Virus record (IMG/VR): IMGVR_UViG_3300031993_000049
DNA: 64,000 bases
Source of the DNA: a virus
Lineage: Duplodnaviria; Heunggongvirae; Uroviricota; Caudoviricetes
Direction: 5' to 3' (one strand)
Shown here: positions 10,025 to 51,397 of the stretch, one piece after another
How the letters are laid out: each line of letters starts with the position of its first letter
Numbering within the stretch: position 1 is the stretch's first letter
Made by a program: the position numbers and the translations under genes
Notes under the pieces: generated by a model
Told to the model about the DNA's origin: nothing
What the model saw: only the letters and a program-made list of their open reading frames with translations
Database searches by the model: none

Positions 10025-10927
10025 ATGAAGTGTGAAGGAAAAATATTGATCATATTACAAGGTCCTCCTTGTTCTGGAAAGTCCACATGGGCAAAGGAAT
10101 ATCAGGAAAAGTATCCTGATACATTGGTTGCCAATCGTGATACTATTCGTTATACGCTTGGCGAAGGTAAGTATACAATGGACAGAGAAGATGAGGTCAC
10201 TGAGATTGAAATGGCCCAGGTAAAGGGTGCAATGGGTGCTGGTAGAACTGTTGTTATTGACGACACTAACCTTAATCCTAAGTATCTTAAGCCTTGGTTA
10301 GACCTTGCTGAAGAAAAAGGCTATGAGGTAAGATATGAGAAATTGTACATACCTTATGGCGAGGCAATGGAACGTTCTAAGAAGCGTAAGGAAGAAGGTG
10401 GTCTTTACATATCAAAAGATGTAATGCAGCGTTTCTATAAGAAATACTTCAAGGAAGAATTCGAGAAGGAAATGACTGATTATCGTGTATTCAATATGAA
10501 TAAGTATGACGATAAATTACCTAATTGTGTTATATGCGATTTAGACGGTACTATTGCTATGCATACGGGCCGAACACCATTCGAGTGGGACAGATTATTC
10601 GAAGACCAAATTGATTGGCGTATGAAGGATATTTTGCGTGCCCTGGCTGCTACTGGTGCTGAGATTATATTCTTGACTGGTAGACAGGAATCTGTAAGAG
10701 AGAAGACAGAGGAATGGCTTACAGCCAATTTCGGTTGGAAACATCAGTTGATTATGCGTCCAGACAGAGAGTTTGGTAAGGGTAATGCTGTTAAGAAGGA
10801 ACTATACGAAAAGTACGTTAAGGGTAAGTATAATGTAATCTGTGTGTTTGATGACGCAAATTATTGCGTTGATATGTGGCGCAATGAGGGATTGTTAACA
10901 TTACAGGTTCAAGATTCAGATTATTAA
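10025..10927 (+). CDS. pnk: bifunctional polynucleotide 5'-kinase / 3'-phosphatase (T4 Pnk-like)
   Basis: N-terminal Walker A: ILQGPPCSGKSTWAKEY. C-terminal HAD motif I: VICDLDGTIAMHTG. Late VFDDANY acidic motif. Confidence 0.85.
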   Translation: MKCEGKILIILQGPPCSGKSTWAKEYQEKYPDTLVANRDTIRYTLGEGKYTMDREDEVTEIEMAQVKGAMGAGRTVVIDDTNLNPKYLKPWLDLAEEKGYEVRYEKLYIPYGEAMERSKKRKEEGGLYISKDVMQRFYKKYFKEEFEKEMTDYRVFNMNKYDDKLPNCVICDLDGTIAMHTGRTPFEWDRLFEDQIDWRMKDILRALAATGAEIIFLTGRQESVREKTEEWLTANFGWKHQLIMRPDREFGKGNAVKKELYEKYVKGKYNVICVFDDANYCVDMWRNEGLLTLQVQDSDY

Positions 10928-10929
10928 TT

Positions 10930-11118
10930 ATGGGTAAGATTATTACATTGTCATTGTTCATCATTGTAACGGTTATTTTTGTGGTTGATATTGCTTCAAT
11001 TGTTTATAATTTATATCTCTCCGCAAAATATAAACATAATTACGAAAAACAGTTGTGGCCAGAATTGATATTACTGATTTTCTGGTCCATATTATTATCA
11101 ATTTTAATTGTGTATTAA
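10930..11118 (+). CDS. small membrane protein
   Basis: Hydrophobic ORF. Confidence 0.5.
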   Translation: MGKIITLSLFIIVTVIFVVDIASIVYNLYLSAKYKHNYEKQLWPELILLIFWSILLSILIVY

Positions 11119-11586
11119 ATGGAAAAAGAAGAATTACTGAAAACAGTGAACGGCAAAAACGTCACGTGTGCCGTTGTTATGATTGATAAGGAAGGTTCAA
11201 TCCTGGGATGTCACCCGACCAGCAGATCTGAGGTCTATGACTTCCCTAAGGGTTGTGCTGGATTTGCTGAGAAGGATGAGGATGCCGCAGTACGGGAACT
11301 ACAGGAAGAAACCAGTATTCTATTAACGCCTAATGAGTTGGCTCGACTTGTTGATGGTGGTATACACCCACATACTAAAGAGAAACTTATTCACATTTTT
11401 ATATTGAGGGTGGATGAATTACCAGATCCAGAATCATTGGTGTGTGAGTCATTCTATGAATACAAAGGGAAGACATATCCTGAGGTAGATAGATATGCAA
11501 TTATTACTAGGGATAAGAGAAATCTGTTCTTTGGGTGCCTGCAGGACAAATTTGAAATAATTGACAGTATAGCAAGTCTGATGTAA
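11119..11586 (+). CDS. NUDIX hydrolase
   Basis: Nudix box GCAGFAEKDEDAAVRELQEETSI (Gx5Ex5-7REUxEExxU). Confidence 0.75.
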   Translation: MEKEELLKTVNGKNVTCAVVMIDKEGSILGCHPTSRSEVYDFPKGCAGFAEKDEDAAVRELQEETSILLTPNELARLVDGGIHPHTKEKLIHIFILRVDELPDPESLVCESFYEYKGKTYPEVDRYAIITRDKRNLFFGCLQDKFEIIDSIASLM

Positions 11587-11590
11587 TATT

Positions 11591-11818
11591 ATGAATAAGT
11601 ATTTATTGTGTTTCATTATAATATATGCAATAGGCTGGATTGCGTTTACGATTGGATTTCTAGTAATATGTAATGATGCTAGACCAAAAAATCGTACTTT
11701 ATGGAATTATGTACCACGTTCAATGTTGTTCTCGCTTATATGGCCATACATTCTTTATGAATATATTGCTCTTTGGGTAATACCTGAAATTAAAGAAAAA
11801 AGAAAGAAAAAAGTATGA
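11591..11818 (+). CDS. small membrane protein
   Basis: Hydrophobic ORF. Confidence 0.55.
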   Translation: MNKYLLCFIIIYAIGWIAFTIGFLVICNDARPKNRTLWNYVPRSMLFSLIWPYILYEYIALWVIPEIKEKRKKKV

Positions 11819-12021
11819 AAAATGATCCAAAATATAACAAATGGCCATTTTGGAGTTATTGTGAAGACTGTATATATTTAAGAGAAGATTCATTATCTTG
11901 TGAAGAATATGGTTATTATAATTCTTGTGGTAATAGTGAATCTGAAAATTATTATGGCAGAGAAGATGATTTAAGTATACTCTATCCAGGAGAAAAATGT
12001 CCAGATAAAGAAATTGAATAA
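11815..12021 (+). CDS. Cys-rich small protein
   Basis: Co-oriented ORF. Confidence 0.5.
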   Translation: MKNDPKYNKWPFWSYCEDCIYLREDSLSCEEYGYYNSCGNSESENYYGREDDLSILYPGEKCPDKEIE

Positions 12022-12024
12022 AGT

Positions 12025-12426
12025 ATGAGAAAGAAAAAAGAAGAAGTAACAGAAGAGTTGGTACAGGAAGTTAAGTATCCAACAGTAGAAGAATTGGTAA
12101 TTGAGTGTATTAAACACGACATACCAGTAAACGGTGTTGACTATAATGGTAGAAACCTGGAGTATGAGATTGGCGGTTTCTCAAAGAGTGGTACTGGAAA
12201 ACTTACCACTGATGAGGACGGTAATACAATCTTAGTTACCAGATATAATACAGTAAACGAAGTAAGATCCTTTGAGGATATTGCTGACGTTGCATATGAT
12301 TGGTATTATAACTACCGAGACAGAGAACCATTTACACAGCCAGATTATAACTGGGCACCAATATTTGTTGAAATGGGTCTAATTGAGGAACGAATTGTTA
12401 AGACCTACGTCCCTGTAGTTCAATGA
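12025..12426 (+). CDS. hypothetical protein
   Basis: Co-oriented ORF. Confidence 0.7.
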   Translation: MRKKKEEVTEELVQEVKYPTVEELVIECIKHDIPVNGVDYNGRNLEYEIGGFSKSGTGKLTTDEDGNTILVTRYNTVNEVRSFEDIADVAYDWYYNYRDREPFTQPDYNWAPIFVEMGLIEERIVKTYVPVVQ

Positions 12427-12480
12427 ATAGAACGTGGGTTTCCTAAACCTAAGATCTGCGTTTGATTCGCAGCAGGGGTA
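12409..12480 (+). tRNA. candidate degenerate tRNA-Arg(CCU)-like cloverleaf
   Basis: Hand-folded 72-nt cloverleaf. Acceptor GTCCCTG/CAGGGGT (two terminal G.U). D-arm GTTC-AATGAATA-GAAC. Anticodon arm TGGGT-TTCCTAA-ACCTA with U33 and CCT at 34-36. T-arm CTGCG-TTTGATT-CGCAG. Lacks G18G19 and C56. Overlaps the last 18 nt of the upstream CDS. Confidence 0.3.
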
Positions 12481-12487
12481 CTTAAAA

Positions 12488-12959: not shown

Positions 12960-13775
12960 ATGGAAGAGAAATTTTTAACTAGAGAAATTGTACAACAAAA
13001 CGGCTGGGACGAACTAGAGGTTATAACAGCCGACATGCTTGATGGGTATACGGAAATTGGATATGCTGCTTTCGGTAATTGTTACAATATTACTTCAATT
13101 ACTATTCCAAATAGCGTAACATATATTGGCAATTCGGCTTTCGCTGGTTGCGACAGTCTTACATCTGTTATTGTTCCAAACAGCGTCATAACCATTGGTG
13201 CGAGTGCTTTTAGGGGTTGTTCAAATCTTAAATCAATTAATATTCCAGATAGTACAAAAGAAATTGGAGAATATGCTTTCCATAGATGCAAAAGTCTTAC
13301 TTCAATTACCATTCCAGATAGTGTAACACGTATGGAAAGCGGCGCTTTCGATGGTTGCTCCAGCCTTACATCTGTCACTATTCCCAACAGTGTAACATAC
13401 ATGGGATATTGGGTTTTCAACCATTGTTCATTCAAAACCCCAAAAAGATATGATGAACAAGGTCGTTTAATTGCCTATAAGGGATTTAATGCCGACATGT
13501 CATGTCGTGGTTTTCAATATGAGGAGGGTGAAACTTATGAAATGGATGGTGAGATTAAATTATGCGAACGAGGCTTTCATGCGTGCACAAACCCACTAGA
13601 TTGTTTGAATTTCTATGGTGGTGAAATATGCAAAGACGTTGTATACCACGAGGTTTACCTTGAAGATGTATCTGATGAGAGTGGTGATGATTCAAAGGTA
13701 GTTGCAAGGAAAATCACCATTGGGCACGAAATAACGCTATCCGAAATGGCAGATATTGCAAGTGGTAAAAAATAA
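12960..13775 (+). CDS. BspA-type leucine-rich-repeat protein with C-terminal Cys-containing domain
   Basis: Five-plus tandem ~22-aa repeats: ITSITIPNSVTYIGNSAFAGCDSLTSV / IVPNSVITIGASAFRGCSNLKSI etc. Confidence 0.8.
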   Translation: MEEKFLTREIVQQNGWDELEVITADMLDGYTEIGYAAFGNCYNITSITIPNSVTYIGNSAFAGCDSLTSVIVPNSVITIGASAFRGCSNLKSINIPDSTKEIGEYAFHRCKSLTSITIPDSVTRMESGAFDGCSSLTSVTIPNSVTYMGYWVFNHCSFKTPKRYDEQGRLIAYKGFNADMSCRGFQYEEGETYEMDGEIKLCERGFHACTNPLDCLNFYGGEICKDVVYHEVYLEDVSDESGDDSKVVARKITIGHEITLSEMADIASGKK

Positions 13776-14318: not shown

Positions 14319-14558
14319 ATGTGGTTAAAAATTGATGATAACAAATTGATCAATCTTGATTTAGTCAAAGCGATTGATAAGGGATTTAACGATATGATTA
14401 TCATTCGTTATGAATTAGATCAAGATGTTATTAATTTCAGAAACGAATGGACTAGAGACGCTGCTTTCGATGACATTCAGAAGTATATTAAAAGTGGTCC
14501 GTTGATGACGGACATTAAAACAGGTAATGATGAAAAAGAAGATTTATCTAGCATCTAG
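14319..14558 (+). CDS. hypothetical protein
   Basis: Track ORF 14217 trimmed to the in-frame ATG just after the upstream stop. Confidence 0.55.
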   Translation: MWLKIDDNKLINLDLVKAIDKGFNDMIIIRYELDQDVINFRNEWTRDAAFDDIQKYIKSGPLMTDIKTGNDEKEDLSSI

Positions 14559-14961
14559 TATGAACAGCGATCGTAGGGATGAATACTACTTCGCTAAAAA
14601 GGCTCTTGAAGCCGCTGGCTTTGAAGTTTACTATCCAGTGGAACATTGCATTGACCACGCCTGGGATTATCCCAATCAAGAGTGGGGTCTGATGGTGTTC
14701 CAAAACGATATGTCCGCAATACTTGCTTGTGACTATATGGTTCTTCTTTCTTATGGAAGAAACTCCACTGCGGGTGCCAATTGGGAGGCTGGTTATGCTT
14801 TCGGTATTGGTAAAAAAGTGATCGTTGTTGAAATGACCGATGAGGTTATGTCTCTTATGGTCGCTAACGGTAGATATGCTACAGTTAAGGGCTTGGAAGG
14901 TCTTAAAAAGTATGATTGGGAGAATATGCCCATGAGTAGAACAAATACAGAACAAAAGTAA
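14527..14961 (+). CDS. nucleoside 2-deoxyribosyltransferase-like protein
   Basis: KKIYLASSM ... TAGANWEAGYAFGIGKKVIVV: Rossmann-like NDT/Rcl family signature. Confidence 0.65.
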   Translation: MMKKKIYLASSMNSDRRDEYYFAKKALEAAGFEVYYPVEHCIDHAWDYPNQEWGLMVFQNDMSAILACDYMVLLSYGRNSTAGANWEAGYAFGIGKKVIVVEMTDEVMSLMVANGRYATVKGLEGLKKYDWENMPMSRTNTEQK

Positions 14962-26340: not shown

Positions 26341-26371
26341 GTTTGACTTTTAATAAAAAATTTGTATAATT

Positions 26372-26821
26372 ATGATACATGAAAAAATCAATGGGCTGAT
26401 CATGGAATCAATGAAAGCCCGCAACGATATACGTACGGAATCACTCCGTGCAATCAAGACCGCTTTCCTTAACTGGAAAACGGAAAAAGAAAACGTTGGC
26501 AAGGAACCTGACGAGGCTTCAGAGTTGCAGATGCTTAGGAAACTCGTTAAACAGCGCCAGGAGTCAATTGAAATGTACAATGCTGCTGGCAGAACCGATT
26601 TGGCTGAAGCAGAGGCCGCACAGATTAACGTTATCAAAGAATTTCTTCCTGCTGAAGCAACAGAGGAAGACGTTCTTAAGGCTTTCAACGAGGTTCTTAC
26701 TGATCTGGACATTGAGCCAGTAAAGAAGAATATGGGTGCCTTTGTAAAGAACATCAAGACTATCTTGCCTAACGCAGACGGTAAGTTGGTAGCAAGTGTT
26801 GTACAAAAACAATTGCATTAA
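26372..26821 (+). CDS. YqeY / GatB C-terminal-domain-like protein
   Basis: Length and motifs (RTESLRAIKTAF, LVKQRQESIEMYNAAGRTDLAEAEAAQINVIKEFLP, KNMGAFVK) match the YqeY family end to end. Confidence 0.85.
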   Translation: MIHEKINGLIMESMKARNDIRTESLRAIKTAFLNWKTEKENVGKEPDEASELQMLRKLVKQRQESIEMYNAAGRTDLAEAEAAQINVIKEFLPAEATEEDVLKAFNEVLTDLDIEPVKKNMGAFVKNIKTILPNADGKLVASVVQKQLH

Positions 26822-29355: not shown

Positions 29356-29922
29356 ATGACAGTAATATACGGAAATCGTGGAGATATGGACACCCTTATG
29401 CTACCTAGCATATGGGAGAGATTAGACAATGTAAATGTTGTTGAAATCGGTCTTAGAACGTTTCACTTCGAAGATAGAGTAGCAGAGGCAATAGCCAATG
29501 AGGATGATACTCTTATTCTTTGCGGCCACGGAACGTCCTGGGGCCTTCTACACCCCAATTTCCATACTGGACAGTATATTATTCACGAGAACAATTATCG
29601 TGACATACACGCAAGAAATTTGATATGTGTATGGTGCCATGCTGCTGACTTTGCTGAGAGATATCACGTAAACGGTTTTTTTAGTTCAATGTTCATATCG
29701 AACGTTAATGAAGCACAAGAGCACCTTGGTAATGGTACAGACCTTACACAAGATCAGATTGGAGACTCGGAATTGATATTCTGCAGAAGACTTAATGCAC
29801 TTCTTAGGGATGGTACACCACTTAACGAGTGGGTGCCTACTTTGAAGAGTTTAATGAATGAAAATAATATGGTGGAGAGATATAATTATAATGGTTTAAA
29901 ATTTTTTGAGAATTATGAATGA
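29356..29922 (+). CDS. hypothetical protein
   Basis: Co-oriented ORF. Confidence 0.7.
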   Translation: MTVIYGNRGDMDTLMLPSIWERLDNVNVVEIGLRTFHFEDRVAEAIANEDDTLILCGHGTSWGLLHPNFHTGQYIIHENNYRDIHARNLICVWCHAADFAERYHVNGFFSSMFISNVNEAQEHLGNGTDLTQDQIGDSELIFCRRLNALLRDGTPLNEWVPTLKSLMNENNMVERYNYNGLKFFENYE

Positions 29923-31384
29923 GATTTTTACACAAAGTGAAAACATCAAGCACGAGTACTGTTGTACTATCGTGCGCATCGGCGAGATCAAGCCAATCGA
30001 GGGCAGGGATCGAATTGTACAGACACTGGTAAACGGTTTGTCTATGGTAATTCGTAAGGACCAGGTAAAAGAGGGTGACCTTATGATTTACGCGATGAAC
30101 GAAACACAGTTGTCCGAGAAGTTCCTTGCTGCTAATAACCTGTATGCTATCGACTGTTACGAAAAGAACAGTAATGCCCCAGAGGTGGGTCAATTACTAT
30201 TCGACGGTAAGAACGATGAGGCAAAGGAACACGTTGGTTTCTTCAATAAGTATGGCCGAGTGAAATTGATTAGACTTGGTGGTGTACCTTCATTCGGATA
30301 CCTCTTCACTGTTAACGAACTTGCAAAGGTATATCCTGAGGTTCTTAATGTTAACCTTGAGGAACTGGTAGACACCGACTTCGATACCGTATGCGGTGAG
30401 GAATTTGTAAAGGTATATATGCCACCTGTAAAGGAAGCAACACCTCGTGGTTCAAAGGAAGCAAAAATGCAGCGTAAACTCGCTAAGTTTGATCGTATGC
30501 TTCCAGGCCAGTTTGCTTTCCACTATGAGACAAAGCAACTCGCAAGGTACATTTCTTACATCAAGCCTACCGACGTGGTAACCATTTCTGTTAAGATGGA
30601 CGGTACTTCATTTATTGTTGGTAATATCCTTGTTAAGTTCCCTAAGTGGGATGGTTTCTACAAGAAGATATTCCCATATCTTCCTAAGTTCCTACAATTC
30701 ACTCGCGAGGATTATGATATTGTTTATTCTTCACGTAAGGTGATTATCAATAAGGATATTAATCCTAACAAGGGTGAAGGATGGGATGGTGGTTCTGTAC
30801 AGAAGGCCATTACTGTAGTTGCCGATCTTATCAGGGACTATGTTCCTAAGGATATGACTATCTACGGTGAGATTGTTGGTTATTACAATCAGACTAACAA
30901 GGCTATCCAAACTCGTGGTGGTAAGGATTATGACTATGGTTGCCCAGTGGGTACCAACAGGTTTATGCCTTATCGAATTGTTACAAAGAACGAGGATGGT
31001 ACAAATCACGAATGGAACGTTTGTGAGGTTTACGATTGGACTATCAATTTCATGAAGGAACATGAGGACCTTGCTAAGTACGTACAACCAATCGTTATCG
31101 TTTACCACGGTACGCTTGCTGACCTTTATCCACAACTTGACGTTGAGAATCATTGGCACGAGAATGTTCTTGAGGCTATGAAGAACGACAAGAAGACACT
31201 TGGTCTTGAGGTATATGAGCCAATGTGTAAGGATAAGGTATGGCGTGAAGGTGTAGTACTCCGTGTTGACGACGATATGGTTAACGAAGCCTTCAAGTTG
31301 AAGAGTGTTAAATACTCTGAGAAGGAACGTGAGGATTACGACAAGGGTGTCATTGACCAGGAAGCAATGGAAGGATACCTTTAA
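29915..31384 (+). CDS. ATP-dependent RNA ligase-like nucleotidyltransferase with N-terminal OB-fold (tRNA-binding-domain-like) extension
   Basis: Motif I VKMDGTS (KxDG), motif III IYGEIVGYY, motif IV REGVVLRV, motif V FKLKSVKY. N-terminal EYCCTIVRIGEIKPIEGRDRIVQTLVNG resembles an OB domain. Track start 29906 is TTG; ATG used. Confidence 0.75.
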   Translation: MNEIFTQSENIKHEYCCTIVRIGEIKPIEGRDRIVQTLVNGLSMVIRKDQVKEGDLMIYAMNETQLSEKFLAANNLYAIDCYEKNSNAPEVGQLLFDGKNDEAKEHVGFFNKYGRVKLIRLGGVPSFGYLFTVNELAKVYPEVLNVNLEELVDTDFDTVCGEEFVKVYMPPVKEATPRGSKEAKMQRKLAKFDRMLPGQFAFHYETKQLARYISYIKPTDVVTISVKMDGTSFIVGNILVKFPKWDGFYKKIFPYLPKFLQFTREDYDIVYSSRKVIINKDINPNKGEGWDGGSVQKAITVVADLIRDYVPKDMTIYGEIVGYYNQTNKAIQTRGGKDYDYGCPVGTNRFMPYRIVTKNEDGTNHEWNVCEVYDWTINFMKEHEDLAKYVQPIVIVYHGTLADLYPQLDVENHWHENVLEAMKNDKKTLGLEVYEPMCKDKVWREGVVLRVDDDMVNEAFKLKSVKYSEKEREDYDKGVIDQEAMEGYL

Positions 31385-31391
31385 CATTCGA

Positions 31392-31458: not shown

Positions 31459-31986
31459 ATGGGATACGAAATTTCATTTAAACCTACAGAAGAGGCGATG
31501 GCTAAATTAAAGCCCTGGGGTGATTCATACCAATCATCAACCAAGAAACAACGAATTGAGTTGATTGCATATTGTATGAGAAAGTCGGATGAACCGACAA
31601 TAAAAATATATGATAACATTAATTTCTATCTTAGATTTTTGAAAGAAAGTGTTAGAACCGACGAACGCGCATTTGCTTATAAAAGATGGAAAGAAAACGA
31701 AGAAAAAGAAATATGGTATTGCGGTTGGGAATTTTCCCGTCCTTCCAGTGTCGACATTGATGAGGTTATTGAATTTACAACACAGGAATTAACAATTTTA
31801 ACCGCTGTGGTTGAAACACCAGACTATTTTGAAAATAACGATAAATTCTACGAAAAGTATCGTGAAGTGATAAAAAGAATTGACGATTTCATTGACACAA
31901 TGGAAGAAGTTACTATACATGAAATAATTGAAGAACTTGACGAATTTAAAGAGAAATACGAAGAAGAAAATGATCAAGAAGTATAG
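31459..31986 (+). CDS. hypothetical acidic protein
   Basis: Co-oriented ORF. Confidence 0.65.
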   Translation: MGYEISFKPTEEAMAKLKPWGDSYQSSTKKQRIELIAYCMRKSDEPTIKIYDNINFYLRFLKESVRTDERAFAYKRWKENEEKEIWYCGWEFSRPSSVDIDEVIEFTTQELTILTAVVETPDYFENNDKFYEKYREVIKRIDDFIDTMEEVTIHEIIEELDEFKEKYEEENDQEV

Positions 31987-32884
31987 AATAATAGGGGATA
32001 TTCATGGTAGAACTAATTGGCATAAGTTAGTAGAACCATTTGACGAAGAAACAATGTACATCTTCGTCGGGGATTATGTGGACCCATACTATCATCTGGA
32101 AGATGTTACATTTGATCAAATGTTTTCTGAAATGGAATCTATCTTCAAAATGAAACAGGAACATCCTGATAATGTAATTATTCTGCTTGGTAACCACGAT
32201 CTTCAATATATTATAAAATATGGAGAAACAAGTCGTTATGAAATAAGCATCAGTAAAAGGAACAAATTGTTCAACTTTTTTGACGAGAATTTGAAATATA
32301 CAGATGGTGTTGCGTATCAAATTAACAACAAATATCTTATCACGCACGCTGGTGTTACTAAAGAGTGGTATGAAACATACTTTGGCGAATTTAAAAAAGA
32401 CACAACGCTTGAAGAAATAGTTAAAAACATAAATGAACTGTGGGAAAACAACAAGTCTGCATTTTATTTTTGTGGTAAATTCTCAGATTCTTACGGTGTA
32501 TCGGAATCTCAAGGACCATTATGGATACGACCTGAAACATTATGGTATGCAAATTTATTTGGCTTTGACAGTGGTATAATTCAAATTGTTGGACATACAC
32601 CATATGAATCAGATTTCCCTGGTTTGGCACCTAATGATGATAATCGTATAGCAACAATTGGCACCGTAAAAATACCAGCAGACAAAGAAGAAATCGAAAA
32701 TGATTTATATTTTAATGACGGTACAAATATTTGTCAACGAATTGATAATAAACCATTACATGTAGATATTATACTCGTTGATTGTTTACGTCGGGAAACC
32801 GCTTGTCTCGACATTGGTGCTGAAACTAACGGTTGGAAACAAGTATATTTTGGTGATGTTGAAAATAAAAAAATTAAATGGTAA
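31970..32884 (+). CDS. calcineurin-like metallophosphoesterase 1
   Basis: IIGDIHGR, VGDYVD, GNHD, HAGV motifs. Track start 31928 is TTG; ATG at 31970 used. Confidence 0.8.
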   Translation: MIKKYRIIGDIHGRTNWHKLVEPFDEETMYIFVGDYVDPYYHLEDVTFDQMFSEMESIFKMKQEHPDNVIILLGNHDLQYIIKYGETSRYEISISKRNKLFNFFDENLKYTDGVAYQINNKYLITHAGVTKEWYETYFGEFKKDTTLEEIVKNINELWENNKSAFYFCGKFSDSYGVSESQGPLWIRPETLWYANLFGFDSGIIQIVGHTPYESDFPGLAPNDDNRIATIGTVKIPADKEEIENDLYFNDGTNICQRIDNKPLHVDIILVDCLRRETACLDIGAETNGWKQVYFGDVENKKIKW

Positions 32885-33498
32885 ATATGGAATATAATTA
32901 TAAATTTACAAGTGGTAAGAATATTTGGTTTACATCTGATATTCATTTTAATCATAAAAACATAATTAAGTACTGCCAACGTCCCTGGGAAACAGTAGAC
33001 GAAATGAATGAGGCGTTAATTGCCAACTGGAATTCGGTTGTTAAAAAAGACGACACGGTATTTATACTCGGAGACATTGGATTTGGAAGTGTTACTAAGA
33101 CAGTAGAATTGGTGTCACGATTAAACGGGCATAAAATTCTATTACCTGGTAATCATGATAGGGAATTCATTCATAAAGAAGAGGTTAGAGCGTTATTTGA
33201 CGACATCCTACCATTGGCATATATTAAAATTGAAGAATTTCATATATATTTATGTCACTTCCCATTCTTATGTTTCGACGGTGCATACAGTGGTGAAAAA
33301 GCAACTTGGCAATTGTTTGGCCACTGCCACTCAAAGAAAGGTTCATTTGGATTGGATTCACAAAGATTGATTCATTGTTATCCTACACAATATGATGTAG
33401 GTGTTGACAATAACAATTATTTTCCAATCTCATTTGAAACGGTTAAGGAAAAAATTTATGATCAGCAACAAAGTTTAAATTTGATTAGAGAATGTTAA
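32878..33498 (+). CDS. calcineurin-like metallophosphoesterase 2
   Basis: FTSDIHFNH, LGDIGFG, GNHD, GHCH motifs. Confidence 0.8.
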   Translation: MVNMEYNYKFTSGKNIWFTSDIHFNHKNIIKYCQRPWETVDEMNEALIANWNSVVKKDDTVFILGDIGFGSVTKTVELVSRLNGHKILLPGNHDREFIHKEEVRALFDDILPLAYIKIEEFHIYLCHFPFLCFDGAYSGEKATWQLFGHCHSKKGSFGLDSQRLIHCYPTQYDVGVDNNNYFPISFETVKEKIYDQQQSLNLIREC

Positions 33499-34858: not shown

Positions 34859-35599
34859 ATGAAGATTTGCGCTATATCTGATTTACACGGAACGCTCCCC
34901 AGTATTGGGGAGTGCGACGTGGTTTTCATTTGCGGTGATATCTTTCCGACCAGGATTGATACGATGACAAAAGAATGCCACGAGTGGTTCAACGGTCCAT
35001 TTGCCGATTGGATCAATGAGTTACCTTGCAAACAAGTTTTTCTTATTGCTGGTAATCACGATTTTTATTTGGAAAGCGAATTGTCATACTTCGGTGAAAA
35101 TGAACAACACTATACTGAATTAAGCCGAATTAAAAGAATTATTCGTGAAAACGAGAAAATGAAGGATAAACTTGTGTACCTTCAAGATGAAAGTTATACA
35201 CTTGAAAACGGTATGAAAGTTTATGGTACACCTTGGTGTATTAGTCCTAAAGGATTTGCTTTCATTGATAGTTCAGGAAAACCATATGAAGAAATTCCAA
35301 TGGATTGTGACATCTTGTTAGTACATCAGCCACCAAGGGTAGGTAAATTAGGGTGTTCAAATCCTAATACACAATATGAAGTTAACTATGCAAGTAAATC
35401 ACTTGCAAATGCAATTGCTGACAGACATATCAAGTATGTGTTCTGTGGGCATATTCATAGTGGAATTCACGGTGGTATATACGTAGATGATACAAAAGAA
35501 ACATTATATCCGTTCTACAAGGATACTTTGTATTATAACGTATCAATTAAAGATGAAGAATATAAGGTTCGTTATGAACCAACTTTTGTAATGATATAA
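34859..35599 (+). CDS. calcineurin-like metallophosphoesterase 3
   Basis: ISDLHG, CGDIF, AGNHDF, GHIH motifs. Confidence 0.8.
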   Translation: MKICAISDLHGTLPSIGECDVVFICGDIFPTRIDTMTKECHEWFNGPFADWINELPCKQVFLIAGNHDFYLESELSYFGENEQHYTELSRIKRIIRENEKMKDKLVYLQDESYTLENGMKVYGTPWCISPKGFAFIDSSGKPYEEIPMDCDILLVHQPPRVGKLGCSNPNTQYEVNYASKSLANAIADRHIKYVFCGHIHSGIHGGIYVDDTKETLYPFYKDTLYYNVSIKDEEYKVRYEPTFVMI

Positions 35600-36109: not shown

Positions 36110-36110
36110 T

Positions 36111-38037: not shown

Positions 38038-38070
38038 ATTGGTTCTCGTTTGGGAACCAATTTTTTTTTT
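38038..38070 (+). terminator. intrinsic terminator (TTGGTTC-loop-GAACCAA plus T10)
   Basis: 7-bp stem, 10 T. Followed by GTATAATTAC. Confidence 0.7.
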
Positions 38071-39790: not shown

Positions 39791-40348
39791 ATGAAAGTAT
39801 TTTTTGATACAGAATTTACTGGTTTACACAAAAATACAACGCTTATTAGCCTTGGTTGTGTAGACGAAGACGGTAGATCTTTTTATGCTGAGTTTGCCGA
39901 TTATGACAGGAACCAATGCGATGACTGGATTAAGAAACACGTATTGAAAAACCTCAAGTTTGACCGTGGTGATAGTATTGTAGGTCAACTTAATTCTGAT
40001 GAAGTAACTGAAATTTACGATGACAAGGAACACGTAAAAGAGGCCCTTGCAGAATGGTTGTCAGTATATGACGAAGTTCAATTAGTTTCTGACGTATGCC
40101 ATTACGATATGGTATTGTTAATTGACTTGTTTGGTAGTGCATTTGATTTACCAAAGAACGTTTGTCCGTCCTGTCACGATATTAACCAGGACATTGCTGA
40201 ACATTACGGTTGTTCTGAAAGAGAGGCGTTTGATAAGTCTCGTGAAGGTATCTTGGCTGATTATGAATTGGAAATTAGTGGGGACAAACATAATGCATTG
40301 TATGATGCGAAAGTAATTAAACGTTTGTACTTATACGTTTTAAAATAA
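39791..40348 (+). CDS. DEDDh 3'-5' exonuclease (DnaQ/oligoribonuclease-like)
   Basis: Exo I FFDTEFTG. Exo III HNALYDA near C-terminus. Confidence 0.8.
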   Translation: MKVFFDTEFTGLHKNTTLISLGCVDEDGRSFYAEFADYDRNQCDDWIKKHVLKNLKFDRGDSIVGQLNSDEVTEIYDDKEHVKEALAEWLSVYDEVQLVSDVCHYDMVLLIDLFGSAFDLPKNVCPSCHDINQDIAEHYGCSEREAFDKSREGILADYELEISGDKHNALYDAKVIKRLYLYVLK

Positions 40349-42353: not shown

Positions 42354-42775
42354 TTATGATAGAAGAAGCATACGTTAGTTTTGAAGTGGCAAAACTTCTG
42401 AAAGAGAAGGGTTTTGATGTTGATACTCCAACAAGATATGCTATTGAAAAGGTAACAGAATCTTGGTATGATGATTATCGGGAAAGAGTTGTTAAATTCG
42501 ATTGGGATAGCGGTTATTTTTTAGGCATAAATGATATAAAACACGATATTAGTGGAGATACTATATCTGCTCCTACCCAACAGATGGCAATGCAATGGTT
42601 GAGAAAAATGGGTTGGTTTATTCATATTGATGTCATTCGAGAGGTGTCCTGCTGGACAGCAGATATTCAAGATATAAAGAATGATGTTGCCATTTATGCG
42701 GTTGAAAAAGAATTTCCCAACTATGAACAAGCATGTGAAGCAGCAATTAAATATTGCCTTGAAAATTTGATCTAA
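42350..42775 (+). CDS. Family-B paralog (YVSFEVAKLLKEKGFD ... ACEAAIKYCLENLI)
   Basis: Tandem with 41925. Confidence 0.7.
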   Translation: MIMIEEAYVSFEVAKLLKEKGFDVDTPTRYAIEKVTESWYDDYRERVVKFDWDSGYFLGINDIKHDISGDTISAPTQQMAMQWLRKMGWFIHIDVIREVSCWTADIQDIKNDVAIYAVEKEFPNYEQACEAAIKYCLENLI

Positions 42776-42777
42776 TT

Positions 42778-42975
42778 ATGACTAAGGAAGATAGAGTAGA
42801 ATTACAAAAGGCTGTATCTAATTTTCTTTACTCGTTTTCGAGCGAGGAAACACGAATGTATGCGCCGTGGGCATTTGATTCAACTGGTTTTCAAAAGCCA
42901 CTTTCAATTGCTGAATTTGCGGCTACATGGATGGAAAGACGTTTGTTAAACAAAATTAAAAATAAAATAAAATGA
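42778..42975 (+). CDS. hypothetical protein
   Basis: Co-oriented ORF. Confidence 0.55.
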   Translation: MTKEDRVELQKAVSNFLYSFSSEETRMYAPWAFDSTGFQKPLSIAEFAATWMERRLLNKIKNKIK

Positions 42976-43796
42976 AATTTAAAAGTCTAGAAGAAAAGTG
43001 TTTGTATTACAGAGGTTTAACTGATTATAAACTTCTGCCTAACAGTAATATTCTTGTCATGCTTGACGGTAAAAACTTTAGTCGTCTCATCAAGAATAAC
43101 TTTAAGAAACCGTTTGATGATGATTTTATCAGAATGATGAACAACACGGCTAAGTTCCTGTGTGAAAACGTACAGGGATGTAAGTTTGCATATGTTCAGT
43201 CTGATGAGATCTCATTGCTCATTACCGATTATGACACACCAGAGACCGACTTGCTGTTTGGTGGTAGACTTTGCAAGATTGAATCTATTCTTGCTTCCCT
43301 GGCTACGTCAGAGTTCAATCGCCAATTCATTAAGTATCACTTGTTTGAGAAGAGAGAAAATTGGTCTGGTGTTGGTTTCGCAGGCCTTTCTGATCAACTT
43401 GATAAAATGAAGATGGCTCAGTTTGACTGCAAGGCTTGGACTGTACCTAATTTTAACGATGCATTTGCTTGGTTCCTATATCGTCAGATTGACTGTATCC
43501 GTAACTCAAAGCAGCAGACTGCTCAAACCTATGTTCCACACAAAGAACTGGTTAAAAAAGATACTGATCAACAAATTGCAATTTGTAGAGAAAAAACCGA
43601 TATTGATTGGAATGATTTTGCCAACCAATACAAATATGGTAGATTTGTTTACAAGGTAGAAAAGGAACTTACTACTACTCTTCCTGACGGTAAGGAAATC
43701 ACTTATTTCAGAAACAAATTCGAGGCTGTACCAGCGTTTGAATTGACGAAGGAAGGAAATAAAGACAAGTTTATCAATCTTATTTTCGAATCATGA
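42972..43796 (+). CDS. Thg1-like protein (tRNA-His guanylyltransferase family 3'-5' nucleotidyltransferase)
   Basis: ILVMLDGKNFSRL (RLDGRNF), FKKPFDDDFIRMMNNTAKFL, AYVQSDEISLLI (YGQSDEYSF), ILASLATSEF: matches the Thg1 core motifs. Confidence 0.85.
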   Translation: MKFKSLEEKCLYYRGLTDYKLLPNSNILVMLDGKNFSRLIKNNFKKPFDDDFIRMMNNTAKFLCENVQGCKFAYVQSDEISLLITDYDTPETDLLFGGRLCKIESILASLATSEFNRQFIKYHLFEKRENWSGVGFAGLSDQLDKMKMAQFDCKAWTVPNFNDAFAWFLYRQIDCIRNSKQQTAQTYVPHKELVKKDTDQQIAICREKTDIDWNDFANQYKYGRFVYKVEKELTTTLPDGKEITYFRNKFEAVPAFELTKEGNKDKFINLIFES

Positions 43797-44079: not shown

Positions 44080-44913
44080 ATGGAAAACGAACACGTTGAA
44101 TTTTTTAAGAAATTATCAGAATATAGGAAAGAATGTGATGAACATTCTCCTGATTCATTTAGTATAGTTGCTCAGGAACTATACGGTATGAGTGTAAAAG
44201 AAGCCCAAATGCTTTTTACGAAGTATAAGAGGATCCTTGCTGGTTGGTGGGATTGGGAAGAAAATGAAGATGAAGGTATTGAAGTTGCCACAAAGGGTAA
44301 AGCAGTACTTGAGCATTCATTTAAACTAACTCCTTCCAAAAAGTGGGATGGTATTAAATCATACCTTGATAGTGACGAATACGGATATAAAAACCACATT
44401 GCTGTATGGGTTAAATATACCGATAAAGAGCAGCCACAAATGCTTGAATTAAAGATTGATTCGGTAAAGAACCTTGCTATGATTCACGATTTAGCCGAAA
44501 GGGAAGACGTTGAGGTTTTATGTATTGTACCTAGTGTTGATAGTATTTCAAATTTACAAGATTGTGAAAATGACGTTGATACCAGGAATGGTAGAATGCG
44601 TGTATATGATGGAGACATTTTTGTTCTTTCCAATCATGGTGCTGATGACTATTGGAATAGACCGAAAGAGAACGGTGTATATGTATGTATGCACGGTGCA
44701 TATCGCAGATTGCTTTACACTATTGGTAGAGGTTATGTTAATACCAGTAAGCAGCCTAACATAGCAAATAATAGTAGTCGTGATGACGATTATGGTGAGG
44801 TATTCACATATCACGAGGGTAAATGGAACCAGCATTTGCTTACTATGGATCACAAATGGAAACGAATTGGTAATATCCACGCAGATATAAGCCTGTTAAT
44901 GGAAAAAAATTAG
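44080..44913 (+). CDS. hypothetical protein
   Basis: Co-oriented ORF. Confidence 0.7.
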   Translation: MENEHVEFFKKLSEYRKECDEHSPDSFSIVAQELYGMSVKEAQMLFTKYKRILAGWWDWEENEDEGIEVATKGKAVLEHSFKLTPSKKWDGIKSYLDSDEYGYKNHIAVWVKYTDKEQPQMLELKIDSVKNLAMIHDLAEREDVEVLCIVPSVDSISNLQDCENDVDTRNGRMRVYDGDIFVLSNHGADDYWNRPKENGVYVCMHGAYRRLLYTIGRGYVNTSKQPNIANNSSRDDDYGEVFTYHEGKWNQHLLTMDHKWKRIGNIHADISLLMEKN

Positions 44914-48166: not shown

Positions 48167-48934
48167 ATGGTAGAAAAATTACAACATATTACGTTTACTG
48201 GTGTCGACGGTAAAACCGACCTTGGTAGAATGTATGAAATTCAGGAAAAGTATCCACTTGTAGAGTGGGGCGTTCTCGTTGCCAAGAATTGGAGAGAGAA
48301 CGGTAATCGTTATTTCAATCCAAGTTATCTTAGTGCATTAGACGGCACTGGATTAAAACTATCTGCACATATGTGTGGTAGTATTGCCCGCGCTGCAGTA
48401 CAAGGTGATCTTAACCCATTCTTTGATTGGAGTAGAGGATATTGTCATATGTTTAATCGTTGTCAATTGAACATTTCAACTTCAAAAGAAAACCCTGCAA
48501 TTTTCAAGTATGAAGGTGATATATCAAATTATTTCAATGAAGTAATTCTTCAGCAAAAATCAGTACGTGACTGTGAATTATATGTTAAAAGTAAACTACA
48601 CAGAATCGACGAAGCAAGGAAAGATGGAATCACCTGTCTTATTGGTGCCGTAGCATTTGACAGGATTACTATGCTGCTTGATGCGTCTGGTGGTCTTGGT
48701 ATTGATACACCTGTTGAAGTATATCCTAATATAGATAAAGTTGGATATGCTGGCGGTATGAATGCATATAACGTTGCTGATAAGTTGGAATATCTTCTTA
48801 CCAATGACGACGTTCATGATTTCTGGATTGATATGGAATCTGGCGTACGTACAGATGATTGGTTCGATCTTGACAAGGTTGAAGAGGTCCTTGAAATATG
48901 CCAGGGTGTAATAAATAAACACAGTAATAAATAA
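48167..48934 (+). CDS. TIM-barrel protein with phosphoribosylanthranilate-isomerase-like (TrpF-fold) motifs
   Basis: N-terminal ITFTGVDGKTD. C-terminal MLLDASGGLGID..VGYAGGMNAYNV, resembling PRAI LLDSGGGTG / LAGGLNPENV. Weak call. Confidence 0.65.
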   Translation: MVEKLQHITFTGVDGKTDLGRMYEIQEKYPLVEWGVLVAKNWRENGNRYFNPSYLSALDGTGLKLSAHMCGSIARAAVQGDLNPFFDWSRGYCHMFNRCQLNISTSKENPAIFKYEGDISNYFNEVILQQKSVRDCELYVKSKLHRIDEARKDGITCLIGAVAFDRITMLLDASGGLGIDTPVEVYPNIDKVGYAGGMNAYNVADKLEYLLTNDDVHDFWIDMESGVRTDDWFDLDKVEEVLEICQGVINKHSNK

Positions 48935-48938
48935 AGAT

Positions 48939-49450: not shown

Positions 49451-49451
49451 T

Positions 49452-49658
49452 ATGAAAGTAAGAGTAATTACAAGAGGTCCATTATTTTATTCTCAGTATT
49501 ACAATGAGGATAAATCAAAATGGTGTGAAACACATAGGCACGATGGTGCTTCTATTCAAAATCAGTTTAGTACGATACAGGAGGCTATTGAAGAATGCAA
49601 ATGGTTTGCAGAAAATAGTAACCAACCTAAAGTTGTTTGGGAAGGAGTAGTAGCATGA
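49452..49658 (+). CDS. hypothetical protein
   Basis: Co-oriented ORF. Confidence 0.55.
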   Translation: MKVRVITRGPLFYSQYYNEDKSKWCETHRHDGASIQNQFSTIQEAIEECKWFAENSNQPKVVWEGVVA

Positions 49659-49942
49659 AATATACAACATTTGAAATAAAAGAAGTGGAGATAGACGTTG
49701 ATTTTCAAAAGATATACGACTATATCTCCAGTGAAGATCACACAGATGATATTAATATCATAGGCGAAGATTTCGGTGATAATTTCCAACACTATATGTG
49801 GCAAGCCCTTGGCATTGAAATGGATAATGGATTCCTTGGTAGAGTACCGTCTGAATTTGATGGTCGTTATCTTGAACTCAATGATTTGGAAGATAAAATC
49901 TGTGACGATTTCTACGAGTGGTTAAAAGAAAACAAGAAGTAA
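49637..49942 (+). CDS. hypothetical acidic protein
   Basis: Co-oriented ORF. Confidence 0.6.
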   Translation: MGRSSSMKYTTFEIKEVEIDVDFQKIYDYISSEDHTDDINIIGEDFGDNFQHYMWQALGIEMDNGFLGRVPSEFDGRYLELNDLEDKICDDFYEWLKENKK

Positions 49943-49943
49943 T

Positions 49944-50294
49944 ATGGAACGAGTAATAGCAGCAGCATATAAGGTAAAACCTGAATTTGTATGCCATAAA
50001 AAACATGGCATAGCCAAGGTTGGTACTAATAGAACTGAGGTGGATGATATCTATCAGTGCAGAATTGGTCGGCACCACGCAGAGATACTTCATATATTTG
50101 GTAAAGAAGTTGATCATCATACAGATGGATTCTATACTTCTTATGGTAGATATGTAGACAGAGAAGAAGCGGCAAAGATTGCTATTGCTGCAGGACAAAT
50201 AAAAGAATGTCACTATTGGGGTCATAACAAACTTGATTCCAGTGACCTTTTTGATTTAGATTACGATGGTTATCCAATAGAATTTGATGAATAA
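49944..50294 (+). CDS. hypothetical protein
   Basis: Co-oriented ORF. Confidence 0.65.
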   Translation: MERVIAAAYKVKPEFVCHKKHGIAKVGTNRTEVDDIYQCRIGRHHAEILHIFGKEVDHHTDGFYTSYGRYVDREEAAKIAIAAGQIKECHYWGHNKLDSSDLFDLDYDGYPIEFDE

Positions 50295-50301
50295 ATGAAT
50301 T

Positions 50302-50736
50302 ATGAAAACAAGTGAACTTCAAAACGAAACCAGTTCTTTGATAAAAGAACATAGCAAATTGTATAAATTAATTGACGAAAAAGAAGAAGCCATTACAGTT
50401 AAAGCAAGGGAATTACTAAATGAATTGCGTAAACTGGATAATTGGGAGGTAATGATTGACGAGTGTAAAGACCACTATGAACGATTTCCTGACGAATTCT
50501 TTGATTGGTGTCATGTAGAATTTGAAAAAAATAAGGTTTATTTTGTGAAGAATTATAGTGATGACGATGACGATTATTATGTTCTTACTATTGATTTGTC
50601 TAAGCCTTTAGAAGATCAAATAAAGGAAAAACAAGAAAAGATAAAAAAAGACGAGGAAAAAGAAAAAGAAAAAATTAAGGCAAAAGAACTTGCCGAATTA
50701 AACCGTTTAAAAGAAAAATATGAAACATTACGATAG
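50302..50736 (+). CDS. hypothetical coiled-coil protein
   Basis: Co-oriented ORF. Confidence 0.6.
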   Translation: MKTSELQNETSSLIKEHSKLYKLIDEKEEAITVKARELLNELRKLDNWEVMIDECKDHYERFPDEFFDWCHVEFEKNKVYFVKNYSDDDDDYYVLTIDLSKPLEDQIKEKQEKIKKDEEKEKEKIKAKELAELNRLKEKYETLR

Positions 50737-51397
50737 TATACCGAGAATACAAGATGATGGCACTTTGAAAGGTGAAATGGTTGTAGGTTATAACAAACTG
50801 GATGGCCAAAACTTTTGTGTAGCATATAATTGTAGAAAGAAAACCTGGGGTCCTTACGGTTCCAGGACAGTGACTGTAGATGAAAACTCTGAACAGTTTG
50901 GAGAAACTGTAAAGTTCTTTAACAACTCTGATTACAAGGAGATTCTGGAAAGAATTGTGAAGGAGTTTTCTGGAAAGGGTGACGTGTTTAACGGTGTTGA
51001 TGAAATCACATTCATATTTGAATGGTATGGATGGAATTCATTTGCTGGGAAGCATAAAGAAGGTGATACGATGAACCTGGCTCTTATTGATGTATTCCTC
51101 AAAAAGAGAGGTTATATTGAACCAAAGAATTATGAAATGTGTTTCAGATATTGTGGTATTGAACTTCCCGATCTAATTTATTCAGGGCCGCTAAATAGCG
51201 AAATTATTGAAAAAGTTCAGAACAACGACTGGACACAACCTGATTGTTGGAATCCACACGTTCACGAAGGTGTTGTATTTAAAAGAACAACATTGCTTAA
51301 GGGTCAGCGTAGACCGTCTGTAAAGGTAAAAACAAAGTGGTGGATAGATAAACTTCATTCAATGTATAGTGAAGAGGAATGTAAAAAACTTGAGTAA
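50720..51397 (+). CDS. minimal Rnl2-like nucleotidyltransferase (second KxDG ligase)
   Basis: Motif I VGYNKLDGQNF (K ~ residue 26), motif IV HEGVVFK, motif V VKVKTKWW. No C-terminal domain. Confidence 0.65.
   Translation: MKHYDSIPRIQDDGTLKGEMVVGYNKLDGQNFCVAYNCRKKTWGPYGSRTVTVDENSEQFGETVKFFNNSDYKEILERIVKEFSGKGDVFNGVDEITFIFEWYGWNSFAGKHKEGDTMNLALIDVFLKKRGYIEPKNYEMCFRYCGIELPDLIYSGPLNSEIIEKVQNNDWTQPDCWNPHVHEGVVFKRTTLLKGQRRPSVKVKTKWWIDKLHSMYSEEECKKLE

Follow-up and report, generated by a model that had tools for sequence, protein, structure and literature searches.

Do genes for healing, sealing and rebuilding RNA ends that lie scattered along a phage genome belong to one system, or does their grouping exist only for the reader who picks them out? 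The question arises from a 64,000-nucleotide (nt) stretch of viral DNA (Caudoviricetes; IMG/VR record IMGVR_UViG_3300031993_000049), referred to here as the window, which is part of a 253,946-bp metagenomic contig (ENA ERZ27257203 k141_2048293); at ~254 kb, the contig identifies its source as a jumbo phage. An earlier note on this DNA had described six of its genes as a dispersed RNA end-healing and sealing toolkit: a T4-type polynucleotide kinase/phosphatase (Pnkp), two different ligases, a Thg1-like enzyme (Thg1L), a DEDDh 3'-5' exonuclease, and YqeY. All six open reading frames (ORFs) are where the note had placed them, on the plus strand and with intact catalytic motifs, and each of the six family assignments scores above the Pfam curated thresholds and has a matching PHROG family. 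The genes are indeed dispersed, over 41 kb. Both ligases group, by profile and by fold, with ATP-dependent RNA ligases and not with the DNA-ligase or capping-enzyme families that the note had named as the outcome that would overturn it, and the product encoded at 42972 belongs to the Thg1 family. We propose, with a probability of roughly 0.6, that the window phage carries a dispersed version of the RNA repair guild, directed mainly at tRNA, that is found in large phages.

The end-healing step is represented by Pnkp (10025..10927, plus strand), a predicted T4-type 5'-kinase/3'-phosphatase that matches AAA_33 (2.7e-18), HAD_PNKP (PF25109; 9.5e-38, positions 1-143 of the 143-position profile) and, over its full length, phrog_505 (3.6e-78). 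An N-terminal P-loop kinase precedes a C-terminal HAD (DxDxT) phosphatase, and the motifs GPPCSGKST, NRDTIR, and DLDGT (residues 172-176) are intact. Searches against the PDB matched Pnkp1 (4XRP; 4.8e-37) and T4 Pnk (1LTQ; 1.2e-31), the latter collinearly (residues 8-300 versus 4-301). GPPCSGKST and NRDTIR align with the equivalent segments of 4XRP, so that both the kinase motif and the RD..R acceptor residues are present; we take 4XRP to come from the bacterial Pnkp1-Rnl-Hen1 RNA repair complex.

Three metallophosphoesterase (MPE) genes, missing from the earlier list, follow ligase 1 on the plus strand, each matching PF00149. MPE304 (31970..32884) is of the calcineurin/PPP type and matches the calcineurin and PP2A catalytic cores in the PDB. 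It also weakly matches phrog_8238, a multidomain family labeled "RNA ligase" in PHROGs that the Pnkp kinase domain matches too; the resemblance of MPE304, again weak, is to the phosphoesterase segment of that family. MPE304 is a candidate end-healing enzyme for 2',3'-cyclic-phosphate or 3'-phosphate ends. MPE206 (32878..33498), a small enzyme of a second subfamily (phrog_547, 3.6e-54; PDB 1XM7 aq_1665, 3.6e-09), represents the MPE paralogue most commonly found within 3 kb of ligase-1 homologues (12 occurrences). MPE246 (34859..35599; phrog_1649, 3.4e-10) belongs to a third subfamily, members of which lie within 300 nt of ligase-1 homologues at three loci (L017, L047, and L086). The MPE genes are succeeded by genes for a dUTPase (35600-36109) and a YAcAr/SLOG-domain protein (36054-36467).

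Ligase 1 (29915..31384, plus strand) is an ATP-dependent RNA ligase of 489 amino acids (aa), in which both the PHA02142 OB module (PF21189) and the RNA_ligase domain (PF09414) exceed the gathering score, and which matches phrog_968 (1.6e-38). Its gene starts at the ATG at 29915, within an ORF that reaches a TTG at 29906. The N-terminal OB module, which carries an insert, leads into a nucleotidyltransferase domain that forms the C-terminal part, with no accessory domain behind it, and the motifs KMDG (K227), IYGEIVGY, EGVVLR, and FKLK are intact. Seven residues (K227, G230, E319, E445, G446, K461, and K463) are invariant across 40 ligase-1 homologues. Motif I reads KxHG in most homologues, as in T4 Rnl2, and KMDG in the window protein, its lysine and glycine being the invariant positions. 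When the 40 sequences were searched against the PDB as a profile, NgrRnl was the sole match (5.8e-5), collinear over the OB module, motif I, and motifs IV/V. For the AlphaFold2 (AF2) model (pLDDT 89.3), the top 13 Foldseek matches are all NgrRnl (~6e-15 over ~465 columns), followed by REL1 (4e-8) and T4 Rnl2 (1e-6), while DNA ligases and capping enzymes score far more weakly than NgrRnl; TM-scores are low because the domain orientations differ, and the N-terminal module bears a large insert as well. Given the profile match to NgrRnl only and this Foldseek ranking, ligase 1 is, as judged from its modeled fold, an Rnl5-type OB plus nucleotidyltransferase RNA ligase in which the N-terminal module is enlarged. 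It is related to Rnl5 in architecture without being an equivalog: the NCBIfam DraRnl equivalog TIGR02306 gave 16.2 bits, under the cut-off of 151. The same family includes the "RNA ligase" of mycobacteriophages Cjw1 and Murica and has many metagenomic homologues.

Ligase 2 (50720..51397, plus strand) is a 225-aa RNA ligase made of a stand-alone nucleotidyltransferase domain (PF09414, 5.4e-08, 33.6 bits against a cut-off of 27; phrog_548, 2.5e-14), with motifs I, IV, and V intact (KLDG, EGVVFK, and VKVK). PDB searches at the sequence level, with the single sequence or with a family profile, returned nothing meaningful, so its classification needed the predicted fold (AF2 model, pLDDT 86.9). Foldseek placed T4 Rnl2 at the top (2HVR at 3e-7, 2HVQ, and 1S68, which is the isolated domain; range 3e-7 to 1.5e-6), then Rnl1, REL1, and NgrRnl. 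DNA ligases came in at 1e-3 or weaker, at least three orders of magnitude behind, whereas the Rnl2 fold is told from those of Rnl1, REL1, and Rnl5 by just one to two orders of magnitude in E-value. Ligase 2 stops after motif V and lacks the C-terminal helical domain that is the signature of T4 Rnl2. We considered the overlapping neighbors (50302-50736 and 51399-51791) as a C-terminal domain supplied in trans, and rejected them because 41 ligase-2 loci showed no conservation of either. On its modeled fold, then, ligase 2 is best labeled "Rnl2-like, nucleotidyltransferase only" and not a member of Rnl2. BLASTP detected no similarity between the two ligases. The PDB entries for NgrRnl and T4 Rnl2 present these enzymes as ligases that seal nicks or act on nicked duplexes.

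The product of 42972..43796 (plus strand) matches PF04446 (7.5e-28, 97.5 bits against a cut-off of 29.2) and phrog_4717 (2.8e-53). Its motifs LDGKNF and QSDEIS align with IDGAHF and QSDEIS of BtTLP, a pairing that covers the metal-binding carboxylates (the D of xDG, and SDE). In the PDB, BtTLP (4KGK) was matched at 1.7e-26 over residues 12-228, compared with 2e-8 for Candida Thg1 and 2e-6 for human Thg1, and the eukaryotic matches are mostly confined to the N-terminal half. Since BtTLP is by far the better match, the protein appears, by PDB match scores, to be a bacterial-type Thg1-like protein (TLP) and not a eukaryotic G-1-adding Thg1. TLPs are described in PMC4820378 as carrying out template-dependent 3'-5' addition to 5'-truncated tRNA.

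Two further proteins are grouped with the set less firmly. The DEDDh 3'-5' exonuclease (39791..40348, plus strand) is RNase AS (Rv2179c)-like: it matches PF16473 (2.1e-09, 37.8 bits against 27), RNase_T, phrog_2259 (2.5e-47), and PDB entries 4OKE and 6S0M (~1e-10), and retains DTE at residues 6-8 and H..D at residues 167-172. The NCBIfam model RNase_AS (NF033638) was matched at 2.1e-19 with 70.4 bits, under its equivalog cut-off of 200, and the poly(A) specificity of RNase AS is for that reason not transferable to this protein. Coordinates in SPO1-like Bacillus phages had hinted at exonuclease-Thg1 adjacency, a lead we dropped because phage BSP38 has no annotated exonuclease near gp122. YqeY (26372..26821, plus strand; GatB/GatE C-terminal-tail-like) is a typical full-length YqeY, with PF09424 at 9e-28 (97.6 bits against 27) over profile positions 2-143 of 143; a profile of its family matched PDB entries 8XJG (2.3e-35) and 1NG6 (1.6e-33) and the C terminus of GatE. 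Xanthomonas phage XacN1 (locus L007, 239851-242568) carries a ligase-2 homologue (ORF354), an NAD+ synthetase (ORF356), and YqeY (ORF360, annotated "glutamyl-tRNA amidotransferase") on the same strand within 2.7 kb.

How are these genes arranged in the window? Each sits inside a tightly packed co-directional array, with gaps of -29 to +84 nt. Measured from ligase 1, Pnkp lies 19 kb upstream; in the downstream direction, the exonuclease is 8 kb away, Thg1L 12 kb, and ligase 2 19 kb. The three MPE genes are at 0.6-3.5 kb and YqeY is 3.1 kb upstream, and these five genes (YqeY, ligase 1, and the MPEs) make up a core locus at ~26.3-35.6 kb. Consensus matching, on which all the promoter and terminator calls here rest, picked out a sigma-70-like promoter match directly upstream of YqeY (26343-26370, plus strand; TTGACT-16-TATAAT, 11/12 positions), the best of the region, preceded by a terminator-like hairpin (26310-26335, plus strand; an 11-pair stem and a T-run). 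A second such hairpin (31390-31417, plus strand; a 12-pair stem, then a T-run) begins 6 nt past the ligase-1 stop codon. Bracketed in this way by hairpins and promoter match, YqeY through ligase 1 is a candidate transcription unit. The two hairpins and a third at 38038-38061 are the three strongest terminator-like hairpins in 25-44.5 kb, all of them intergenic and on the plus strand. The promoter match stops 2 nt short of the YqeY start codon, which would mean a leaderless mRNA or one with a very short leader.

Whether homologous phages keep these genes together was a check that the earlier note had suggested. We collected IMG/VR loci around ligase 1 (n = 80), ligase 2 (n = 41), Thg1L (80 of at least 551 viral matches), and YqeY (n = 80), together with 80 TLP loci from bacterial and archaeal genomes. 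Six-frame ORFs of the loci were searched in a single phmmer round with the window proteins and with the neighbors found at loci L011 and L013, and loci were dereplicated at 90%. Within 10 kb of ligase 1, a Pnk kinase was present in 21 of 56 clusters (38%) and an MPE in 29 (52%); within 3 kb, the counts were still 16 and 20, respectively. By our estimate, a randomly placed single-copy gene in a 200-400 kb genome would be expected within 10 kb in 5-10% of cases and within 3 kb in 1.5-3%, and the proximity of the core (ligase 1, Pnk, and MPE) is well above random placement. Other partners within 10 kb of ligase 1 were fewer (YqeY 8/56, ligase 2 7/56, and Thg1L 2/56). Seen from ligase 2 (27 clusters), the neighbors were MPE (10), Pnk (9), ligase 1 (7), and Thg1L (6), and the ligase-1 list shares at least 20 of the 41 ligase-2 contigs. 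Seen from Thg1L (57 clusters), they were HAD phosphatase (11), MPE (9), Pnk (7), YqeY (6, of which 4 within 3 kb), ligase 1 (4, all within 3 kb), and ligase 2 (3). One 412-kb contig, IMGVR_UViG_3300028888_000043, is present in all four locus lists.

Individual loci make the linkage more concrete. In L196, Thg1L, ligase 1, Pnk, and MPE follow one another with overlapping ORFs, and L020/L124 hold Pnk-Exo-MPE-Lig2-Lig1 in 8.5 kb. The order is YqeY-Lig2-...-Thg1L-Lig1 in L157, Lig1-YqeY-Pnk-Exo in L034, and Pnk-Thg1L-MPE-Lig1 in L323, a contig of a Bacteroidota metagenome-assembled genome (MAG). L013 carries, on the same strand, ligase 1, a 203-aa ORF, an HD/AAA_33 Pnk, an Rv2179c-like exonuclease of the same Pfam family as that of the window, and an MPE, and in L011 ligase 1 is followed by a HAD_SAK_2 ("Swiss-army-knife") phosphatase, with a PNK3P gene upstream. 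Among named phages, Lak-A1, one of the Lak phages, has Thg1L, ligase 1, and two MPE homologues on one strand within 18 kb, its MPE304 homologue lying 1.9 kb from ligase 1, and mycobacteriophage Murica encodes Pnk (gp91) and a ligase-1 family member (gp94) with two small genes between them. Thg1L-YqeY adjacency, in some cases with overlapping ORFs, recurs in divergent viral contigs (L175, L212, L210, L165-168, L183, L189, and L207). Goat, yak, and other gut samples supplied the closest "bacterial genome" Thg1-like matches (L297-L300, 47-65% identity). These are short MAG contigs assigned to Clostridia, Paludibacteraceae, Mycoplasmatota, and Bacteroidales, and their Lig2-Thg1L-Pnk content looks like mis-binned phage DNA.

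Conserved linkage is thus strong for ligase 1, Pnk, and MPE and moderate for ligase 2 and Thg1L; for the exonuclease and YqeY it is weak to moderate. The earlier view of a single functional guild holds up to the same degree: neighborhoods elsewhere bear it out for the core and, less firmly, for ligase 2 and the Thg1-like gene, and less still for the exonuclease and YqeY. Likewise, the core genes recur in compact, co-oriented clusters in other viral contigs, but their linkage to the exonuclease and YqeY is modest.

We suggest that such a set might work as follows. Host ribonucleases that cut tRNA or structured RNA would leave 2',3'-cyclic-phosphate or 3'-phosphate ends together with 5'-OH ends. 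Pnkp would phosphorylate the 5'-OH and strip the 3'-phosphate, yielding ligatable 5'-phosphate and 3'-OH ends, and the three MPEs probably supply cyclic-phosphodiesterase or phosphomonoesterase capacity. Breaks healed to 3'-OH/5'-PO4 would then be sealed by the two unrelated ATP-dependent RNA ligases. Because the characterized enzymes nearest to them in structure, NgrRnl and T4 Rnl2, seal nicks, the likelier substrates would be nicks in a stem, a duplex, or a templated context, rather than the open anticodon loop on which T4 Rnl1 acts. From the 5'-phosphate supplied by Pnkp, the TLP would rebuild missing 5' nucleotides of the acceptor stem with the 3' strand as template. Least certain are the roles of the last two proteins: the exonuclease may act on damaged or extended 3' ends by trimming them, and YqeY may assist by binding RNA or tRNA. 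What the analysis shows is the families and folds, the intact active-site motifs, and the repeated clustering of these families in other phages; substrates, step order, and a counter-defense role are what we infer, and a counter-defense purpose would follow reasoning already published for related sets (PMC2904730, PMC7824862, and 10.1101/356790). The particular targets named in the earlier note (PrrC, VapC, colicins, PARIS, and retrons) are speculation.

Several observations weigh against reading the genes as one guild. In the window, they are spread over 41 kb among ~90 other ORFs, and the terminator-like sites suggest that they fall into different transcription units. The census was seeded from this phage group and includes related contigs, so that its percentages are neither independent events nor complete. 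Of the 56 ligase-1 clusters, only 2 have an exonuclease nearby, as do 3 of the 57 Thg1L clusters; the exonuclease sequence of the window itself matched none of the ligase-1 loci and near Thg1L gave only opposite-strand hits, the same-strand cluster hits (L020/L124 and L034/L035) coming from the L013 seed only. Any core repair gene is found within 10 kb in just 17 of 60 phage YqeY clusters, and adjacency of YqeY to a TLP is essentially absent from the cellular genomes (1 of 80 loci, with the genes 8 kb apart). As to sealing, the set contains no Rnl1-type ligase specialized for the anticodon loop. T4 Rnl2 needs its C-terminal domain for efficient sealing from non-adenylylated ends, and ligase 2 is without one.

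Could the six genes instead be functionally unrelated passengers of a very large genome, their grouping a construct of the reader? Pnkp and the ligases would then act on DNA or RNA-DNA hybrid ends, the exonuclease in nucleotide or signal turnover, and YqeY in some translation-related role. Dispersal, with many unrelated genes in between, fits this account, as do the modest linkages of the exonuclease and YqeY and the fact that bacterial YqeY is linked to rpsU and not to repair genes. The window also has nucleotide-metabolism neighbors (the dUTPase, a nucleoside deoxyribosyltransferase, a NUDIX hydrolase, and the YAcAr-domain protein), and T4 Pnkp and ligases of the Rnl2 and Rnl5 types accept DNA or hybrid substrates. 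We nevertheless regard it as quite improbable that the genes are mere passengers, given that the same families recur in compact, co-oriented, and sometimes overlapping clusters in many divergent viral contigs, that the core genes co-occur at frequencies well above random placement, and that both ligases are structurally nearest to RNA ligases and not DNA ligases.

A second account keeps the enzymes on RNA but gives them a housekeeping task, the maturation of phage tRNAs: the TLP would add G-1 to a phage tRNA-His or edit imperfect 5' ends, Pnkp and the ligases would join the exon halves of phage tRNAs with introns, and the exonuclease would trim 3' trailers. Precedent exists, as the Lak megaphages, the closest known relatives of this phage, have 31-32 tRNAs, some reportedly intron-containing, and their authors class a G-1-adding enzyme, a CCA-adding enzyme, and a peptidyl-tRNA hydrolase as tRNA-modifying (10.1101/356790); the tRNA-His guanylyltransferase of phage CBB was likewise assigned to phage tRNA maturation (PMC5259590). 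A tRNA gene does lie 1.5 kb from Pnkp (tRNA-Arg, anticodon CCT, 12409..12481, plus strand; ARAGORN, and Rfam RF00005 at 55.4 bits). It is, however, the sole tRNA gene in the window, has no intron, and does not encode CCA, and we discarded the idea that it needs 5' editing, its acceptor stem being intact except for G·U pairs. Introns in bacterial tRNAs usually splice themselves, with no need for a ligase. Elsewhere, 11 of 57 Thg1L clusters have any tRNA gene within 10 kb and only 1 has tRNA-His, and the consistent partners are the end-healing enzymes Pnk, HAD, and MPE; the protein itself is nearest to bacterial TLP (BtTLP), not to the G-1-adding eukaryotic Thg1. Taken together, these points make tRNA maturation an unlikely main function.

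We therefore prefer the RNA repair guild, and within it the place of YqeY and the exonuclease deserves a separate statement. The Thg1L-YqeY adjacency and the clusters YqeY-Lig2-...-Thg1L-Lig1 and Lig1-YqeY-Pnk-Exo led us to the tentative idea, for which we would give rather less than even odds, that YqeY and the RNase AS-like exonuclease are unrecognized accessories of phage tRNA-end repair around a TLP and an Rnl5-type ligase, in which YqeY would bind RNA or tRNA as a partner of the TLP. A further accessory might be the NUDIX hydrolase encoded two genes downstream of Pnkp (11119..11586, plus strand; PF00293; phrog_1185, 2.4e-20). It gave weak, sub-threshold matches to the NCBIfam RNA pyrophosphohydrolase and has counterparts near ligase 1 in 3 of 56 loci; it is possibly a pyrophosphohydrolase acting on RNA 5' ends or on nucleotides, and it is uncertain whether it belongs to the set.

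What kind of phage carries these genes? The window has ~35% G+C, a single tRNA gene, and almost all of its coding on the plus strand. Among 50,697 phage records, megablast with 16 kb of the window found no match, and the phage is thus uncatalogued at the DNA level. It is a relative of the Prevotella Lak megaphages, and a distant, mosaic one, since only 5 of 155 window proteins have homologues in Lak-A1 (81 kb of Lak-A1 compared; loci L009 and L010). Lak phages recode TAG (10.1101/356790). We looked for such recoding here and set it aside: the window is 94% coding under the standard code, its 155 ORFs ending in TAA (109), TGA (37), and TAG (9).

Other genes of the window are recorded here for completeness. 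Just upstream of Pnkp are tandem duplicates of no known function (8139-8786 and 8798-9442; 39% identical, phrog_14949), and another such pair (41925-42353 and 42356-42775; 34% identical, phrog_12005) stands just upstream of the Thg1-like gene; paralogy was also suspected for 44080-44913 and 48167-48934, for which BLASTP gave no support. Six paralogues of ~120-150 aa, from a family of no known function and with 34-47% mutual identity, occur as one copy at 231-632 and a tandem array of five at 53608-55887, and homologues of this family lie near the ligase-1 gene in L011. Between Pnkp and the YqeY-ligase locus are genes for a leucine-rich-repeat protein (12960-13775; LRR_5 and DUF7666) and a nucleoside 2-deoxyribosyltransferase-like protein (14530-14961). 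A 737-aa protein (19342-21555), whose sole recognizable part is a short central acetyltransferase-like segment, has homologues close to the ligase-1 gene in L011 and L015 and may be syntenic. Within a phage early-type gene array, a 353-aa protein (5784-6845) matches the transposase-annotated phrog_10081 (6e-20).

If the repair reading is right, this phage lineage devotes at least 10 genes to RNA end repair, which would point to strong and varied host pressure on tRNA and structured RNA in gut and rumen Bacteroidota-type hosts. The locus would also supply candidate enzymes of modest but real value (ligase 1, as an Rnl5-type enzyme whose OB module is enlarged; ligase 2, as a minimal RNA ligase of 225 aa; and the phage TLP), while the compact natural operons of related contigs are clonable units for testing rescue from tRNA-cleaving defense. 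The Thg1L-YqeY adjacency, in turn, is a testable lead to the role of YqeY, a conserved protein of unknown function.

To place this set among known systems, we compared it part by part with its nearest relatives. The earlier note had likened it to the Pnkp and Rnl1 pair of T4, which counters PrrC. The analogy is a loose one: both share the kinase/HAD-phosphatase architecture of Pnkp, an ATP-dependent RNA ligase, and the logic of healing before sealing, but the window ligases are Rnl5-type and Rnl2-like and neither is of the Rnl1 type, the genes are not adjacent, and a TLP, MPEs, and an exonuclease are added. Compared with Rnl5 of Naegleria gruberi and Deinococcus radiodurans, ligase 1 has the same order of OB module and nucleotidyltransferase domain with no further C-terminal module, but is longer (489 versus 340 aa), has a ~100-150-aa insert in and after the OB module, shows ~17% identity, and matches NCBIfam DraRnl only weakly. 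Ligase 2 shares with T4 Rnl2 the nucleotidyltransferase fold and motifs I, IV, and V, and differs in having no C-terminal domain, in its length (225 versus 334 aa), and in sequence (~16-17% identity). For the Thg1-like protein, BtTLP is the best relative in the structural database.

The combination as a whole had been thought undescribed in phages, which proved wrong: such sets are described in PMC2904730, PMC7824862, 10.1101/356790, and PMC5259590. Anantharaman, Iyer, and Aravind (2010, PMC2904730) reported conserved neighborhoods of Thg1, PNK, and RNA ligase and predicted an RNA repair role for them, including in large DNA viruses. In the window, by contrast, the Thg1L partners are 12-33 kb away and not operonic, and adjacency to a phage YqeY is not among the associations taken here from that paper. 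Phage CBB (Rak2-like) has a tRNA-His guanylyltransferase, two RNA ligases, and a peptidyl-tRNA hydrolase (PMC5259590), and a G-1-adding enzyme and a repair ligase are listed for the Lak phages (Devoto et al., 10.1101/356790). The Lak phages provide the closest catalogued homologues (Thg1-like protein 52-54%, ligase 2 58-60%, ligase 1 31-34%, and YqeY 31% identity), but across the Lak regions compared, homologues exist for few of the other window proteins, and no TAG recoding is evident in the window. Pfam and PHROG scans of ~50 other ORFs of the 64-kb window found no RlaP, RtcB, CCA-adding enzyme, peptidyl-tRNA hydrolase, 2H, Macro, or KptA.

The nearest precedent is the jumbo-phage RNA repair sets of Iyer, Anantharaman, Krishnan, Burroughs, and Aravind (2021, PMC7824862), which, according to section 3.4.9 of that paper, comprise Pnk-HAD, several non-redundant RNA ligases, calcineurin-like phosphatases, and, sporadically, Thg1, and for which the role proposed there is the countering of host attack on tRNA. 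Both the component list and the proposed role, as given in that section, match the window set. In the searched text of the paper, YqeY is unmentioned and an exonuclease is named only for DNA-polymerase proofreading, whereas the window set has both. The literature searched, which did not reach the Burroughs and Aravind (2016) catalogue of RNA repair, held no mention of YqeY and Thg1 together. If the set has any new element, it is the adjacency of Thg1L to YqeY, along with ligase-Pnk clusters that include an RNase AS-like exonuclease. The locus thus leaves the comparative-genomics picture of jumbo phages unchanged: it is an uncatalogued example of an RNA repair set known from them, notable for its pairing of an Rnl5-type ligase with a minimal Rnl2-like one and for its three MPE paralogues.

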